Assembly (NCBI GenBank): GCA_963782525.1
Contig: CAWAKC010000001.1
Location: forward strand, 128,001-192,000
Direction: 5' to 3'
Source of the DNA: Candidatus Bathyarchaeota archaeon
Lineage (GTDB): Archaea; Thermoproteota; Bathyarchaeia; Bathyarchaeales; Bathycorpusculaceae
DNA: 64,000 nt
The notes below the pieces were generated by a model. The model saw only the letters and a list, made by a program, of their open reading frames with translations. It searched no databases and had not been told where the DNA came from. Position numbers and translations under genes: made by a program. Of the stretch, positions 46,963 through 52,109 are shown piece by piece. Within the stretch, counting starts at the first letter, position 1. The number at the start of each line of letters is the position of its first letter.

Positions 46963-47229
46963 ATGTCCCGAGCAAAAAAACGACAAGTCTGCTTCAGAAT
47001 TGAAGAATCAATAGTGGAAGAAATGGAGCAAATACGCAGCAAAACAGGCGTTCCGGTTAGCACCCAAATAGAACTACGATTGAAAGGCTTCACAATCGCC
47101 AATGCTCCGGAAAAAGGAAACCCTCATGAAATTTTGCGTATGTTCGCAAATATGGAAAAAAATGACGAATTAGCGGATAACATTGACCTAGCGGTAGAGG
47201 AAATGCGTAAAGGGCTGAAACTTCGCTAA
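46963..47229 (+). CDS. Putative antitoxin (RHH-like)
   Basis: RQVCFRI beta-strand then helices; stop overlaps the PIN toxin start (TAATG). Confidence 0.65.
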   Translation: MSRAKKRQVCFRIEESIVEEMEQIRSKTGVPVSTQIELRLKGFTIANAPEKGNPHEILRMFANMEKNDELADNIDLAVEEMRKGLKLR

Positions 47230-47628
47230 TGGTTTGTTTAGATACAACAATTCTAGCGGATCTAATTCGCAAGCAACCAGAGGCTAACAAAAAACTGAAA
47301 ATGCTATCTGAAGATAGCAAGGGCTTTTCTACTACTATTATAAACATCGCAGAACTTTTCTATGGGGCATACAAATCCAATAATGTCAAGCAAGGAAAAG
47401 ACGACATCAATTTAATTGTCAGTCGATTTGTCGTCTTTGAAATGGATGAAGTAGGTGCTGAGCGATATGGGCAAATTCGGAGTAACCTTTGGAAGATAGG
47501 TCAAATAATTCCAGATAGGGACATGACTATTGCGGCAATAGCCCTATCTAGTAGGAGAAAACGTCATAGTAACGAGAAACAAAAAGGATTTTGAACGAAT
47601 TCCGAATCTAACAGTTGAAACGTACTAG
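47229..47628 (+). CDS. vapC: VapC PIN-domain toxin (frameshift near 47552)
   Basis: CLDTTIL, AELFYG, DMTIAAIA; C-terminus IVTRNKKDFERIPNL in a shifted frame. Confidence 0.85.
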
Positions 47629-47701
47629 AGTTTAGAGCGCAAGTTTTTGCATAAAGCTTATAATTGCATGCTTGGTTCAGCGTATTGAAGGCACAGTAAA
47701 G

Positions 47702-48617
47702 ATGCATCTGATCAATTTCAAAGAATTAACAAGCTCTGACCTTGCTTCAATGGTTGATTTAGGCATAAAAGTTAAGCACAACCCTAAAAAATACCTCAAA
47801 ACATTCGAGGGAAAGTCAGCTGCATTGATTTTCCAGAAGACATCCACTCGTACTCGAGTATCCTTTGAAGTTGCCATGACGCAACTGGGCGGCCATGCGC
47901 TCTACATCGATTGGCGCACAACCAACTTCGCCTTAGCAGACATAATAGACGAGCTTCAATACCTATCACGCAACGTCGATTGCATAATGGCACGGTTACT
48001 TTGTGACGCAGACTTGCTCAAGATAGCTAAGGCTTCCCGTGTTCCAGTTATAAACGGCTGTGACGAGATGTATCATCCAAGCCAAGCCCTAGGCAGATTT
48101 AATCACCATCAAAGAAAAACACGGCAAACTTGAGGGTGCAAAACTCGTTTACATCGGCGTTCACAACAACGTCACTAACTCACTGATCGAAGGATGTACC
48201 AAAACAGGTGTCGAACTCACCACTGTAACGCCGATTTTTAATGAAGCAGCGAGAGATGACGAGCTGCTTTCGCAAGCTAAAAAAACGGGTCTTTGGCAAT
48301 CAACCTTGGATGCTAAGAAAGCTGTTGCCAACGCCGATTTCATTTACACGGACACATGGATTGATATGGAGTTTTTCACTGACCCCAAGTTTGCCGCTGA
48401 AAAAGAGAAGCGCATTAATCTCATGATGCCCTACCAAATCAATGCTGAGTTGCTCAAGAACAGCAACGCCTTTATCATGCATGATATGCCCATTCACCGT
48501 GGATACGAAATAAGTGCGGAAGCCATAGGGAGCCCGAAGTCAGTGATTTACGAGCAAGCAGAAAACAGGTTGTACGCAGCCAAAGCGGTTTTTCTCAAGT
48601 TAATGAGCCCTTTTTGA
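47702..48617 (+). CDS. argF: Ornithine carbamoyltransferase (+1 frameshift near 48092)
   Basis: STRTRVSF, INGCDEMYHPSQAL, YTDTW, MHDMP, QAENR. Confidence 0.88.
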
Positions 48618-48962: not shown

Positions 48963-49403
48963 CTAAATCGGCTTTGTTCCCTTTCTGTAACCACACGAGT
49001 AGCAGTTTTCATCGTGAACGCAAACTGCATCTCCACAGTTTGGGCATCTATACTTTTCTTGTTGGTTTTTGAGGAATGTTTCCATGCCTTTGATTTTAAG
49101 TTCCTTCAGGTTCTCCACCATGCTCATGTTATAACGTTCGCGGTATCGCTTGTCGAGGTGTGCAAGGTTTTTGCAGGCCAATGTATCACATTGGGTGCAA
49201 GACTCGATTTCATGTTTTCTAAGTTTTGGGCAACCTCGAATTATATAGCAGTTTTTGGCTCTGGGAAGGCAGCCTGCGCAGTGAGTTACTTTGCCTCTTT
49301 TCGTTGGTACTCCATGGGTGTAAGCGAGGTAAGCTCTGCAGATTCCGCAGTTCATTCCGCAGGGAGCAATTAGTTCGGGCGTAAATTTGTTGGTTGACAT
49401 CAT
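48963..49403 (-). CDS. DUF3795 Cys-rich protein
   Basis: APCGMNCGIC, CAGC, C..C..C, CPNCG...CYSC. Confidence 0.85.
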   Translation of the reverse strand: MMSTNKFTPELIAPCGMNCGICRAYLAYTHGVPTKRGKVTHCAGCLPRAKNCYIIRGCPKLRKHEIESCTQCDTLACKNLAHLDKRYRERYNMSMVENLKELKIKGMETFLKNQQEKYRCPNCGDAVCVHDENCYSCGYRKGTKPI

Positions 49404-49467
49404 TTGGTATTAGACGAAAACGGTTTAATTGGTTTACGCTTTCTCAAGAATGGGAAGTGCTTTAAGG

Positions 49468-49507
49468 ATAATTCTTACTTGGCGTCGAAAATCCTTGACA
49501 ATTATTA
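49468..49507. repeat. Site A: core plus right arm of the 63-bp palindrome
   Basis: ATAA-TTCTTAC-TTGGCGTCGAAAAT-CCTTGACAATTATTA matches the right arm of site B. Confidence 0.8.
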
Positions 49508-49702
49508 CTCAGATGTACTCAAAGTCCTGCGCACAAATATGTTCTGCATAGATGCTATCGACTAATCATAGTGCCCAAATAGCGGATGTGCCGAGAAATT
49601 AAGTAGAGTCCCGTTAAAAAGTATGGGTATAAATAAAACGCTGAGTAAATAAAACTAGGTAACTAAGTTCTTAACTATGAAATCTAGTAACAAGGGAACA
49701 AC

Positions 49703-50107
49703 ATGGCAAAAAGTAGTGCGAAGAAAGATGAGTCTCCTTCACAGCTTATCGACGCAAGAATTCAAGAACTAGGCGACTGGCGCGGAGAAACGTTAGCCAA
49801 AGTGCGTCGCCTCATCGAGGAGGCCGACCCAGAAGTAGTTGAAGAGTGGAAATGGGTGAAACCAACAAACCCTGGGACTCCAGTCGGGTCTCACAACGGC
49901 GGCATCTGCACAGGGGAGACCTACAAGAGTTCGGTCAAACTCACGTTTTTCAAGGGTGATTCGCTGGAGGACCCTTCTCACCTTTTCAACCAGCCTGGGA
50001 CTGTCAGGCGAGCCATCGACATCCATGAGGGCGAGAAGATTGAGGAGGAAGCCTTCAAGACCCTCATTCGTGCTGCTGTGAAACTGAACGCTTCCAAATC
50101 TCGCTAG
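49703..50107 (+). CDS. DUF1801 (YdhG-like) protein
   Basis: LGDWRGETL..VR.LI.EADP.VVEEWKW, GETYK..VKLTFFKG, RRAID. Confidence 0.9.
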   Translation: MAKSSAKKDESPSQLIDARIQELGDWRGETLAKVRRLIEEADPEVVEEWKWVKPTNPGTPVGSHNGGICTGETYKSSVKLTFFKGDSLEDPSHLFNQPGTVRRAIDIHEGEKIEEEAFKTLIRAAVKLNASKSR

Positions 50108-50193
50108 TGCTAACGGCTTTAGATTGCCGAATTCGGTATTACTTTATTTTATTTAGATTTAATGACACAAAGTAATGGCTATGACACTCTCGC

Positions 50194-50256
50194 ATAATTA
50201 TCAATGGAATTTCCAACATAATTCTTAATTAGCGTCGAAAATTCCCTGATAATTAT
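50194..50256. repeat. Site B: 63-bp imperfect palindrome (28-bp arms, 7-bp spacer TTCTTAA)
   Basis: ATAATTATCAATGGAATTTCCAACATAA-TTCTTAA-TTAGCGTCGAAAATTCCCTGATAATTAT; 20/28 arm positions complementary by hand count. Confidence 0.85.
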
Positions 50257-50374
50257 TAGCGCAACGTGATAATGTTCATTCTAGACTTGTTATTATGATG
50301 TTAATCTCGCAGCTATTCATTGGTAAATTTCTTTAAACATAAAGATTTATTTAGTCTATATTATATATTGAGTC

Positions 50375-50890
50375 TTGGCATTGAATATGAGAGCTGCATT
50401 GTTAGCCCCAACATATCTTGCATTATCATGGGTCCTCACTGTCAGCTATCAACTTTTCACTGATACCGCAGTCAAGTCAATTGCAACAAATATCATTTTG
50501 TTCTGGCCAACTGTCGGTTCCTGGCTGAATTTTAATATTCAAACCATAGTTTTTGTTTACGCTTTCACATGGATTTTCGTCTTGTCATCGGTCATACCTT
50601 CAGCTATATTGGGAAAACAAAGAAGTACTCTCATTCAATATGCTGTTGTCTTAATGTTAACTTTGATAGCTTTTTTCATGGCCGATATCCTTCAAACAAT
50701 CGCAGGAATCCGAATCGAGCAGATATTGGGAGCAGCAGTCCTTCTCGAAAATCCCATTTTGGCAGGATTTTATTTGTCAGCACCCTTCCTATTTATGATT
50801 GGTTTAGATATTAATTCCAAGAAAAAGCGGATACAAGGAGAAATCGCTAAAAAAGAAATATTTTCTGAATGGGAAAAAACCAGACAATGA
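50375..50890 (+). CDS. Hypothetical 4-TM membrane protein
   Basis: 171-aa hydrophobic ORF; AT-rich. Confidence 0.7.
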   Translation: MALNMRAALLAPTYLALSWVLTVSYQLFTDTAVKSIATNIILFWPTVGSWLNFNIQTIVFVYAFTWIFVLSSVIPSAILGKQRSTLIQYAVVLMLTLIAFFMADILQTIAGIRIEQILGAAVLLENPILAGFYLSAPFLFMIGLDINSKKKRIQGEIAKKEIFSEWEKTRQ

Positions 50891-50967
50891 ATAGCTAATG
50901 TGAATTATTCTTACAGCTTAATGTCCTTTCCTTCAGCTTCGTTCGAACTGTCGCTTGAGCATTTGGA

Positions 50968-51007
50968 GCATAATTATCAAGGCAATTCCTAACATAATTC
51001 TTAATTA
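50968..51007. repeat. Site C: left arm plus core of the 63-bp palindrome, overlapping the probable ilvC promoter
   Basis: GCATAATTATCAAGGCAATTCCTAACATAA-TTCTTAA-TTA matches the left arm of B at 26/30 with an identical core. Confidence 0.85.
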
Positions 51008-51020
51008 TGCCATCTGATAA

Positions 51021-52109
51021 ATGCAATGGCTGAGGTACATAAAAATGGTGAAAATCGATTTCGGCGGCGTCAAAGAGGACGTCATCACACGAGAAGAATT
51101 CACATTGGCAAAAGCCCAAAAAATCCTAAAAGACGAAGTTGTCGTCTCACTTGGCTACGGCATACAGGGTCAAGCTCAATCACTCAACATGCGTGACCAA
51201 GGAATAAAAGTAATTATAGGACAAGAAAAAGAGGGCGTATTCAAAAAAGAGTGGGACAAAGCAATCGCTGACGGCTGGGTTCCAGGCAAAAACCTGTTCC
51301 CGATGGAAGAAGCGGCAAAAATGGGCACCATCAAACTGTTCCTACTCACTGACGCAGCACAAAAAGCGACCTGGCCAAAAGTTAAAGCAACCCTCAAAAA
51401 AGGAGACGCACTTTACTTCAGCCACGGCTTTAGCATCGTCTACAAAGAACAAACAGGCGTTATCCCACCCAAAGACATAGACGTAATCCTTGTTGCACCA
51501 AAAGGTTCCGGCACCTCTGTGCGCCGAAACTTTGTTGACGGAAGCGGCATAAACTGCAGTTTCGCTGTCTTCCAAGATGCAACAGGCAAAGCCGAAGACC
51601 GCGCCAAAGCACTCGGCATCGCCATCGGCGGAGGATACCTTTTCCCAACCACCTTCGAAAAAGAAACCTACAGCGACCTAACAGGCGAACGAGGCACACT
51701 AATGGGTGCACTAGCAGGCATCCTCGAAGCCCAATACAAAACCCTACGTGAACACGGACACAGCCCAAGCGAAGCATTCAACGAATCTGTCGAAGAACTA
51801 ACCCAAAGCCTAATCCGCCTTGTCGACGAAAACGGCATGGACTGGATGTACTGCAACTGCAGTGAAACCGCACGCATAGGCGCATTACGATGGAGAAGCC
51901 GCTTCCGCGAAGCAACCCAACCAGTATTCGACTCACTTTATGAGCTTGTCGCGGCGGGTGAAGAAACACGCATCGTCCTCGAAAAAAGCAAGGCGCCCGA
52001 TTACCGCCAAAAACTTGCTGATGAACTCAAAGAGATGGGTAACAGCGAAATGTGGCGTGCAGGCGCAACCGTTCGGTCGTTGCGTCCTAAACAGAAGAAG
52101 ACAGAATAA
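51021..52109 (+). CDS. ilvC: Ketol-acid reductoisomerase (Bacteroides/fungal Ilv5-like type)
   Basis: GYGIQG, FSHGF, VAPKGSG, SDLTGERG, CSETA; start probably ATG 51045. Confidence 0.95.
   Translation: MQWLRYIKMVKIDFGGVKEDVITREEFTLAKAQKILKDEVVVSLGYGIQGQAQSLNMRDQGIKVIIGQEKEGVFKKEWDKAIADGWVPGKNLFPMEEAAKMGTIKLFLLTDAAQKATWPKVKATLKKGDALYFSHGFSIVYKEQTGVIPPKDIDVILVAPKGSGTSVRRNFVDGSGINCSFAVFQDATGKAEDRAKALGIAIGGGYLFPTTFEKETYSDLTGERGTLMGALAGILEAQYKTLREHGHSPSEAFNESVEELTQSLIRLVDENGMDWMYCNCSETARIGALRWRSRFREATQPVFDSLYELVAAGEETRIVLEKSKAPDYRQKLADELKEMGNSEMWRAGATVRSLRPKQKKTE

Follow-up and report, generated by a model that had tools for sequence, protein, structure and literature searches.

A tandem array of small gene cassettes was identified directly upstream of ilvC in a 64-kb stretch of DNA (hereafter "the window"; G000:C1:128001-192000) from a Candidatus Bathyarchaeota archaeon of soil and peat, the source genome G000 of which consists of 2.87 Mb in 12 contigs and is 95.8% complete. 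Two single-gene units lie there between three related sites that share a 14-bp core, and probably cassettes flanked by attachment (att) sites and mobilised in trans accrete at this core, which is very likely part of the native promoter region of ilvC. The geometry of the sites, a series of alleles at the locus, the occurrence of the cassettes with their arms at other loci, and a genus-wide family of such sites that forms several arrays were observed directly; we infer the circular intermediate, the exchange point, and the enzyme. Site-flanked, stacked cassettes of this kind point to a gene-capture system not yet described in archaea. Coordinates without prefix are positions in the window, and G and L labels denote other genomes and loci.

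The window contains three + strand copies of the core ATAATTCTTAMTT (49468, 50218, and 50994), a number that none of 100 shuffled sequences reached (expectation, 0.37). The 14-bp core common to the three sites, designated A, B, and C, is ATAATTCTTA(A/C)TT(A/G), and the core-to-core spacing is 750 bp for A-B and 776 bp for B-C. Site B (50194-50256), which occurs only once in the window, was recognised by repeat search as an imperfect palindrome with 30-nt arms, 73% complementary and 3 nt apart; manual count gave 20 complementary positions out of 28 and a 7-nt spacer. The left arm of B together with the core recurs at site C (40 nt at 90%), and the core together with the right arm recurs at site A (25 nt at 92% and 20 nt at 85%). 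Upon search with nhmmer, the match at site A covered model positions 27-70 only and that at site C model positions 5-44. The locus is organised as follows, B and B' being the host-side flanks and R and L the right and left arms.

48963-49403, - strand: DUF3795 gene (PF12675, E 7e-7), the conserved left neighbour, transcribed away from the array.
49404-49467, + strand: host-side left flank (B), alignable to the region on the left of the bare core in G019 and G016.
49468-49507, + strand: site A, consisting of core (49468-49481, variant ATAATTCTTACTTG) and right arm (49482-49507) without left arm, B-core-R.
49508-50193, + strand: body of cassette 1, with a promoter-like AT-rich stretch and the DUF1801 gene at 49703-50107 (PF08818, E 1.5e-18).
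50194-50258, + strand: site B, full and dyad-symmetric, consisting of left arm (50194-50217), core (50218-50231), and right arm (50232-50258); nhmmer E 1e-19.
50259-50969, + strand: body of cassette 2, with its own promoter region and a multi-pass membrane gene at 50387-50890 (alternative TTG start at 50375).
50970-51007, + strand: site C, consisting of left arm (50970-50993) and core (50994-51007) without right arm, L-core-B'.
51008-52109, + strand: host-side right flank (B'), with the ilvC leader (51008-51044, including GAGGT) and ilvC (51045-52109).

The coordinates and the half-site, full-site, half-site geometry proposed in the initial annotation of this DNA were thus reproduced by core scan, repeat search, and nhmmer. 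One + strand gene is present in each interval between cores, and the difference in base composition described there was also observed, the GC content being 0.47-0.49 for the DUF1801 gene and 0.34-0.39 for the membrane gene against a contig average of 0.436. The product of the latter, hereafter the four-transmembrane (4-TM) protein, belongs to no Pfam family and shows about 4-5 hydrophobic segments by eye. The distance from core to start codon is 235 and 157 bp in the two cassettes, including AT-rich promoter-like stretches; the start of ilvC at 51045 is preceded by GAGGT as a ribosome-binding motif.

Alleles of the DUF3795-ilvC interval were compared among relatives, in most of which DUF3795 orthologues adjoin this variable interval. 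A single bare core without arms was found in G019, directly beside DUF3795 and with 116 bp between the start codons, and in G016, with 129 bp between the start codons (the DUF3795 match in G016 covers the first 33 residues only). The left part of these empty sites aligns to the flank of site A in G000 and the right part to the flank of site C. One cassette is present in G010, in the order of right-type site, DUF1801 cassette, and left-type site, and likewise the DUF1801 cassette alone is located at ilvC in L093 and L096, in which the sites read R and then L. G023 carries other cargo, a truncated right arm being followed by the gene for a 229-aa membrane protein (isoprenylcysteine carboxyl methyltransferase-like by eye) and then by a left arm. 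Two cassettes are present in G000, to whose ilvC protein those of G010 and G023 are 99% identical. Between G000 and G023, similarity stops about 10 bp beyond the core of site A and is regained from the outer edge of the left arm of site C onward. Subtraction of the units from the interval leaves 115 bp in G000 (1641 bp less 750 + 776 bp) and 119 bp in G010 (861 bp less one unit of 742 bp). In other species, the interval ranges from about 0.4 to 6 kb with other content.

Cassette 2 is absent at the ilvC locus of G010 and G023, and its body is absent from all the ilvC loci of relatives that were compared. In a peat metagenome run (X5), there are two contigs, about 92% alike, in which position 50188 or 50143 is directly followed by 50968; 779 or 824 bp are thus missing, and these contigs carry the one-cassette form with DUF1801 alone. 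The empty junction and the different cargo between the same sites that the initial annotation had proposed to look for in relatives were therefore both found, the former in G019 and G016 and the latter among the close relatives G010, G023, and G000, and this series excludes the case, named in that annotation as contrary to its proposal, of the same two genes everywhere without an empty allele. Its predicted empty-site sequence was correct in architecture; the observed sites, which are from other species, differ from it in some positions. As to the DUF1801 cassette of G010, it is only 88% identical to that of G000 as against about 95% for the ilvC-side flank, and its gene aligns in two overlapping tblastn pieces (L048:2152-2554), which suggests a frameshift.

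Both cassettes occur with their arms in other genomic contexts. The 4-TM cassette was found in G001:C4 with 85% identity over 736 nt, from the left arm of B to past the gene, with a degenerate full site upstream and a decayed left site downstream, and the flanks of this copy map to C6:110.8-112.1 kb of G000. In the metagenome contig L210, it is 88% identical over 815 nt, from the left arm of B to the core of C, and lies between two full sites, with different cargo after it. The DUF1801 cassette was found within flanks other than ilvC in L072 and L131.

The sites at ilvC are members of a larger family. With an nhmmer profile of full sites, about 10 sites were detected at four loci of G000, and 12 matches were obtained with a covariance model. 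The four loci are listed below.

Window, 49468-51007, + strand: this array.
C1:49.6-53.3 kb, - strand: array 2.
C4:8525: single left arm with core.
C3:457151: single left arm with core.

In array 2, two of the sites are full, one is full but degenerate, and two are of the left type, and its cargo comprises an opposite-strand gene for a 168-aa secreted-looking protein, the gene for an ABM-domain protein, and a 2.5-kb PNPOx/HTH/DsbA-like unit. Other copies of the palindrome flanking single genes, another point put forward for checking in the initial annotation, thus exist in G000 and, as described below, across the genus. With a sequence-only covariance model built from 14 full sites, 62 of 100 further genomes from this Bathyarchaeia genus were found to carry sites, at 1-21 per genome. 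The exact 15-mer CATAATTCTTAATTA was present in 13 of 24 other genomes of the genus versus none of 16 genomes from the other genera of the order, and the reversed 15-mer, used as control, gave three matches in all. A pattern scan over one genome per prokaryote species yielded 92 stretches, and among the 80 listed, 72 were titled Candidatus Bathyarchaeota or Bathyarchaeia and represent metagenome-assembled genomes from soil, peat, and bog; the remaining eight include one "uncultured archaeon" and seven with bacterial titles. Two of the latter are probably archaeal contigs that have been mis-binned: L077 (titled Limnocylindrales) shows argF-ilvC synteny of the Bathyarchaeia type, and in L138 (titled Cytophagales) two sites are present, the cargo being CDF and MntP. 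In a viral contig collection, the patterns for left arm, right arm, and core plus provirus end each gave 0 stretches.

Within one array, the sites are on the same strand, with L104 as the single exception among the listed loci. Arrays of the L-L-L type also exist, in which many units carry a left arm and no right arm. Pairs of left arm plus core separated by 68-126 bp without a gene between them were noticed at L144:1452/1531, L127:6526/6615, L154:2782/2908, L158:6568/6636, and L091:1279/1359; such pairs may be emptied or collapsed cassettes.

The cargo is diverse. Among the loci examined for cargo, 54 distinct intervals between neighbouring same-strand sites were delimited, with lengths of 375-3376 bp, and their largest open reading frames (ORFs) fell into 10 families with two to five members and 49 singletons, encoded on either strand. 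Pfam scan was performed for 20 of 76 cargo ORFs. The families identified were GNAT, flavodoxin, cation efflux, MntP, PAP2, GT2, nitroreductase, RibD_C, beta-CASP, DUF7000, Lrp/AsnC, a second DUF1801, TspO, DUF4386, Rce1-like, small multidrug export protein, and the CarboxypepD_reg domain, together with a weak, sub-threshold match to SQHop_cyclase_C, and two of the 20 proteins had no family. No recognisable recombinase or transposase was found in the 54 intervals, nor was any present among the 20 scanned proteins.

Alignment of site B with 13 other full sites (14 in all) indicated that a full site of 63-70 bp consists of three conserved blocks, i.e., the outer ATAATTATC box, the core CATAATTCTTAATT(A), and the inverted GATAATTAT box. 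The inner arms are variable except for an A-run on the right, and conservation within the arms is lowest at the bases adjoining the core. The ATAATTAT box is palindromic by itself and two such boxes flank the core, which is also dyad-symmetric by itself (ATAATT-CTT-AATTA), so that a full site is composed of three dyad boxes about 22-24 bp apart. Of the palindrome cells in the 14 sites, 72% pair, and the covariation was not above that of shuffles, 97 of 500 of which reached it. Since pairing is thus not accompanied by covariation above shuffles, the hairpin reading of the palindrome was rejected in favour of a protein-binding site, and its symmetry fits protein-binding motifs as judged from the alignment. 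Rfam search of the site gave nothing above noise.

Among 45 distinct sequences upstream of ilvC, including those without arms, the core is located at a near-constant distance of about 38 nt from the ilvC ATG. These sequences were labelled by script as left arm plus core (36 sequences), "core only" (8), and "no core" (1); inspection by eye revealed that two of the eight (L105 and L111) do carry the arm and that the "no core" row is due to a mis-set start. In all five genomes examined among those of the genus without a covariance-model match (site-negative; G003, G008, G016, G019, and G053), the core is present before ilvC without arms. Because the distance to the ilvC start is fixed even in arm-less genomes, the core is very likely a part of the native ilvC promoter, perhaps the TATA element as its position would suggest, and because the arms are absent from all five site-negative genomes, expression of ilvC would be independent of the arms.

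A lone arm-less core was noticed at G000:C3:230423 (L012:6423), 36 nt before a 56-aa ORF with a leader that resembles the ilvC leader. It has 20 nt in common with the empty-site sequence predicted in the initial annotation, and adjoins transposase fragments of the insertion sequence (IS) type, outside their repeated part. About 0.1 chance occurrences of the exact 14-mer are expected in the G000 genome by our own arithmetic rather than by a computing tool, and this core may be a second unoccupied attachment site or have arisen by chance.

The model considered probable is as follows. The target would be the 14-bp core (ATAATTCTTAATTA) of the native ilvC promoter region, into which cassettes would be inserted by site-specific recombination. 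Each cassette would be ordered as right arm, own promoter, gene, and left arm, so that, once closed up, presumably as a circle, it would carry left arm-core-right arm, that is, a full site of 63-70 bp as at B. A trans-acting recombinase would pair this full site with any resident core, either the bare promoter core or one at a resident cassette, and the strands would be exchanged within the core, probably at its central TTCTTAA. With every integration, one cassette and one more copy of the core would be gained, resulting in B-core-R ... L-core-R ... L-core-B'. As for att elements, an arm-less attB was found in relatives, hybrid junctions at the ends of the array, and a full site between the units. 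Loss of a cassette would proceed by the reverse reaction or by homologous recombination between the 40-bp repeats of left arm and core.

A number of results weigh against this model. Loss by homologous recombination between the 40-bp repeats could equally well take place. The main ones are arrays that lack a recognisable right-type end and an excess of left-arm-only (L) over right-arm-only (R) sites, equal numbers of which are predicted by a simple att model; the loci picked by the L pattern contained 102 L, 70 full (F), and 14 R sites, the contigs picked by full sites contained 11 L, 5 R, and 46 F in our own tally, and the 150 listed rows of covariance matches included roughly 60 L versus 10 R by eye. 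Some ilvC arrays (L121, L129, and L145) have no recognisable right-arm site at the DUF3795 end, and array 2 of G000 opens with a full site with nothing recognisable upstream. The 4-TM gene was also found without arms at L163 (G059:C4), L164 (G104:C14), and L165 (G086:C37), with 84-85% protein identity and similarity confined to the promoter and coding region; the loci of G059 and G104 are mutually syntenic and that of G086 represents a further context. These arm-less genes could represent the state before capture of a gene found elsewhere as a cassette. Among assembled contigs, no circular form was seen, and no terminal overlap was detected in 37 metagenome stretches.

The search for the enzyme adds to these points. 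No match to PF00589 was obtained in the 64-kb window, in agreement with the initial annotation, which had placed the recombinase elsewhere. By tblastn of eight tyrosine recombinases of G000 against the site-flanking loci collected, only one fragment (L120) was detected, and apart from this fragment no Xer or integrase gene linked to a site copy, as that annotation had hoped for, was found. The XerA equivalog NF040815 gave at best 76 bits in a search of the whole G000 genome against a cut-off of 220. The recombinase of G095, the single PF00589 match of a genome with 16 sites, has no tblastn homologue in G000, and among three recombinase families examined across 119 other genomes of the genus, none follows site presence. 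Six tyrosine recombinases of G000 were also scanned individually against the XerA equivalog and none reached the cut-off; the 76-bit protein and the other recombinases look like mobile-element integrases. The eight G000 recombinases and the G095 protein gave no match in 37 metagenome contigs, and serine recombinase (PF00239) gave no match in G000. The only Cas1 match in G000 is interrupted by 5 stop codons and is not intact, and among five site-rich relatives Cas1 was intact in none and present as fragments in two.

Individual candidates were examined and rejected. The C3:146428 family is present in 99 of the 119 genomes, including site-negative G003, G008, G016, and G019, whereas site-bearing G012, G095, and G086 lack a match to it at E 1e-20. 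The C1/C8/C4 family is present in 72 of the 119, including site-negative G016, G053, G008, and G005, and is not among the matches listed for site-rich G010 and G002; in C4, its member lies beside tRNA-Lys. The recombinase at C6:74060 has a weak site-like stretch nearby (E 3.3) and occurs in only 16 of the 119. The integrase at C6:36704 has a weak core plus right-arm-like stretch 700 bp upstream (nhmmer E 0.6), adjoins tRNA-Pro, and looks like an ordinary island integrase targeting tRNA. The Cas1 remnant (G000:C3:270900-271463, L068) is located among glycosyl-hydrolase and antiporter genes with no casposon-like genes near, and a weak site-like stretch was noted 2.2 kb upstream of it. The recombinase gene regions at G000:C1:2101-3669 and C8:85951-87947 are 91% identical, are located near contig ends, and each have behind them 12 nt that match the 3' end of tRNA-Lys exactly; these copies are probably a repeated integrative element that breaks the assembly.

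The leading guess for the enzyme is a recombinase of a mobile element, for instance from the tailed proviruses that abut two of the sites. At both C4:8525 and C3:457151, a diverged right-arm-like stretch comes after the left arm and core, and about 150 bp of shared sequence then lead into genes of tailed viruses, with terminase large subunits of phrog_2 and phrog_979. The context at C4 is the following.

G000:C4:8525-39230 (L010, L191, L192): tailed-provirus-like region of about 30 kb, directly after a left-arm plus core site.

This region contains the phrog_2 terminase, a same-strand structural module extending to about 25.5 kb, and a type III restriction-modification pair, and ends at about 39.1 kb with a 403-aa tyrosine recombinase, the only integrase of the proviruses, beside tRNA-Lys. 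The related provirus copy from C3:457151 is cut short by the end of its contig. Array 2 ends in a remnant of the same provirus-start stretch, and in G002 an array of four cassettes is located between the orthologue of the upstream histidine kinase gene and the start of that stretch. Neither a second site in C4:8000-41000 nor a direct repeat between the two provirus ends was found.

Three other explanations of the array were weighed. Non-autonomous transposons, i.e., mobile insertion cassettes (MICs), passenger miniature inverted-repeat transposable elements (MITEs), or mini-casposons, would have the arms as terminal inverted repeats and the core as a 14-bp target-site duplication, and a transposase or casposase acting in trans with a strict target would build the array by repeated hits in the duplicated target. 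The geometry of target-R-gene-L-target, with n+1 cores for n units, fits this as well as conservative recombination, the arms are mutually inverted repeats (20/28), and casposons are described, in excerpts of the reports on them, as elements that prefer certain sites, bear terminal inverted repeats, and duplicate their target site (PMC4779613, PMC5137440). Nevertheless, this explanation is unlikely, as it fits less well with one-armed units, the lack of a parent element or casposase, the constant target, and the poorly conserved tips. Units without right arm in the L-L-L arrays would not be allowed for a two-ended transposon, the core-adjoining bases are the least conserved of the arms, which is unusual for termini, and the 14-bp target is identical at every locus. 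An element in which these arms enclose a transposase was not found, since the nhmmer search of G000 detected sites only, no recognisable transposase was present in the 54 intervals or the 20 scanned cargo proteins, and intact Cas1 was found neither in G000 nor in the five site-rich genomes.

It is quite unlikely that core and arms are only regulatory DNA, that is, promoter or operator boxes copied around, with the gene variation brought about by homologous recombination after DNA uptake. The core does stand about 38 nt from the ilvC start everywhere, including the five arm-less genomes, the lone core at C3:230423 lies 36 nt before a small ORF with a similar leader, the three ATAATT-type dyad boxes look like protein-binding sites without hairpin covariation, and repeats of 40-70 bp might serve for homologous exchange and deletion. 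Homology does not, however, explain how a first cassette came to be inserted at a 14-bp core without arms, and pure homologous exchange does not fit the independent cargo found exactly at the arm-less core in many species together with arms that are dispensable for ilvC, being absent from its promoter in all five site-negative genomes. Moreover, the arms accompany cassettes into unrelated loci, and the sites are not cargo promoters, because the genes on either side of them may have any orientation and the start codons are distant (235 and 157 bp in this array). A system of the Xer/dif type, to whose sites the initial annotation likened the core, would have cassettes (as pdif modules or integrative mobile elements exploiting Xer, IMEX) exploit host XerA to recombine dif-like cores, and is highly unlikely. 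As in Xer sites, the core is made up of short inverted halves with a spacer at the centre, and the lack of a dedicated recombinase near the arrays is as expected when the host enzyme is borrowed. The kinship gained no support, since the XerA equivalog stayed far below its cut-off in G000 (76 versus 220 bits), although a very divergent Xer is conceivable, and since array sites share one orientation; in addition, the site is 63-70 bp long with outer boxes, instead of 28 bp in 11-6-11 arrangement, and the core sits in a gene promoter.

Functionally, the closest known systems to the cassette accretion favoured here are the tandem accretion of integrative or cis-mobilisable elements (CIMEs) and the integrons. 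According to excerpts of the literature, integrative elements accrete in tandem at one att site, and CIMEs keep att and lack an integrase (PMC5704250, PMC7563491, PMC13651849). Likenesses to this group are the arm-less empty attB, the hybrid junctions at the ends and the full site between units, a number of cores equal to that of units plus one, units without recombinase, and a virus-like element at the same site. Differences are the small size of the units (0.4-3.4 kb, mostly single-gene), the several arrays per genome, the archaeal host, a target that is a promoter core instead of the end of a tRNA or protein gene, and the lack of any partner element found with integrase and both arms.

The attC sites of integrons carry conserved outer R'' and R' boxes. 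In the present sites, unlike attC, the centre is invariant, the arms are variable, and hairpin covariation is lacking. Small, diverse, mostly single-gene cassettes with imperfect palindromes between them on one chromosomal platform are features in common with integrons, and the enzyme can be unlinked, as in clusters of attC lacking integrase (CALINs). In archaea, canonical integrons are on record only as attC clusters that are rare and for the most part without integrase (Ghaly et al. 2022; PMC9668308). The array here ends in half-sites (site C), whereas the last site of an integron is complete, and the cassettes have their own promoter regions and cargo on both strands, whereas those of integrons are promoterless and co-oriented. 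Neither IntI nor attI was found, and a DUF3795 gene stands at the head of the array. The analogy to integrons drawn in the initial annotation therefore fails at the IntI/attI head, the attC build, and the promoterless co-oriented cassettes.

Sites of pdif modules alternate in orientation, and a dif site is 28 bp long in the arrangement 11-6-11. Small modules of accessory genes, short recombination sites, the lack of an internal recombinase, and shuffling between replicons are shared with the pdif modules of Acinetobacter plasmids and with IMEX. The sites described here differ in that their length is more than double and their orientation direct, the arrays are located on the chromosome within a promoter, and no XerA equivalog was detected in G000, so that the second analogy of the initial annotation, to pdif modules and IMEX, does not hold with respect to site length, orientation, and XerA equivalog. 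Excerpts of two reports define dif modules as units bounded by pdif sites (PMC6449649, PMC13141974). As to transposons, the passenger gene between inverted repeats and the lack of an own transposase are in common with MICs and passenger MITEs, unlike which the present units have a constant 14-bp target, are in many cases one-armed, and have no parent IS found in G000. MICs and passenger MITEs are elements in which a passenger gene is located between inverted repeats without an own transposase, and casposons are known for a 14-15 bp target-site duplication and for tandem insertions. The archaeal host, strong target preference, terminal inverted repeats, and duplicated target are shared with casposons, as far as these are described in the excerpted text of PMC4779613 and PMC5137440; differences are the lack of intact Cas1 in G000 and five site-rich relatives and the tiny size of the units, which lack a polymerase.

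Two features of the neighbourhood of the array were also noted. The argF gene, identified by reading of the translation, is present as two ORFs in different frames (47672-48133 and 48306-48617), and argF of G023 is likewise split into several tblastn pieces; the different frames and the fragmented matches suggest frameshifts, possibly errors of long-read assembly rather than real pseudogenes. Between a gene for a 274-aa protein and argF, a pair of genes for 88-aa and 121-aa proteins (46963-47594) resembles by eye an antitoxin and a PIN-type toxin. The 121-aa protein had a tblastn match only in G023 (48% identity) among the loci of relatives searched, and the pair may be another small variable insert.

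Full-text literature searches, covering main texts without supplements, revealed no description of such arrays, and none is described in the text excerpts of the archaeal integron paper (PMC9668308) or of PMC11705971. Accretion at an att site is known in kind, and for this lineage there is no record of anything similar. The exchange of single accessory genes in uncultured archaea of soil and peat such as Bathyarchaeia is, to our knowledge, largely unknown. The locus provides a complete natural series of empty, one-unit, two-unit, and other-cargo alleles with breakpoints at the 14-bp core, and the system is directly testable because of this series, the genus-wide sites, and the defined cassettes in several contexts.

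More tentatively, a recombinase beyond XerA, IntI, serine recombinase, and Cas1, not resident beside the arrays and perhaps brought by viruses, might drive an archaeal platform of promoter-bearing single-gene cassettes, which would carry a double-stranded site with three dyad-symmetric boxes and insert into TATA-like promoter cores, with several arrays per genome and throughout the genus. If this is true, the 4-TM gene has been seen both captured (G000, G001, and L210) and uncaptured (G059, G104, and G086), which bears on the birth of cassettes, and the enzyme, should it prove new, would offer a new tool for site-specific integration with a short defined target. If viruses bring the recombinase, as the right-arm-like sequence at the left ends of the proviruses may indicate, cassette shuffling would be virus-driven and provirus integration would be linked to the turnover of host gene cassettes. 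In the host, what appears to be the promoter core of a housekeeping gene would serve as a landing pad without destruction of the promoter, since the core and its distance to ilvC would be restored after each insertion.

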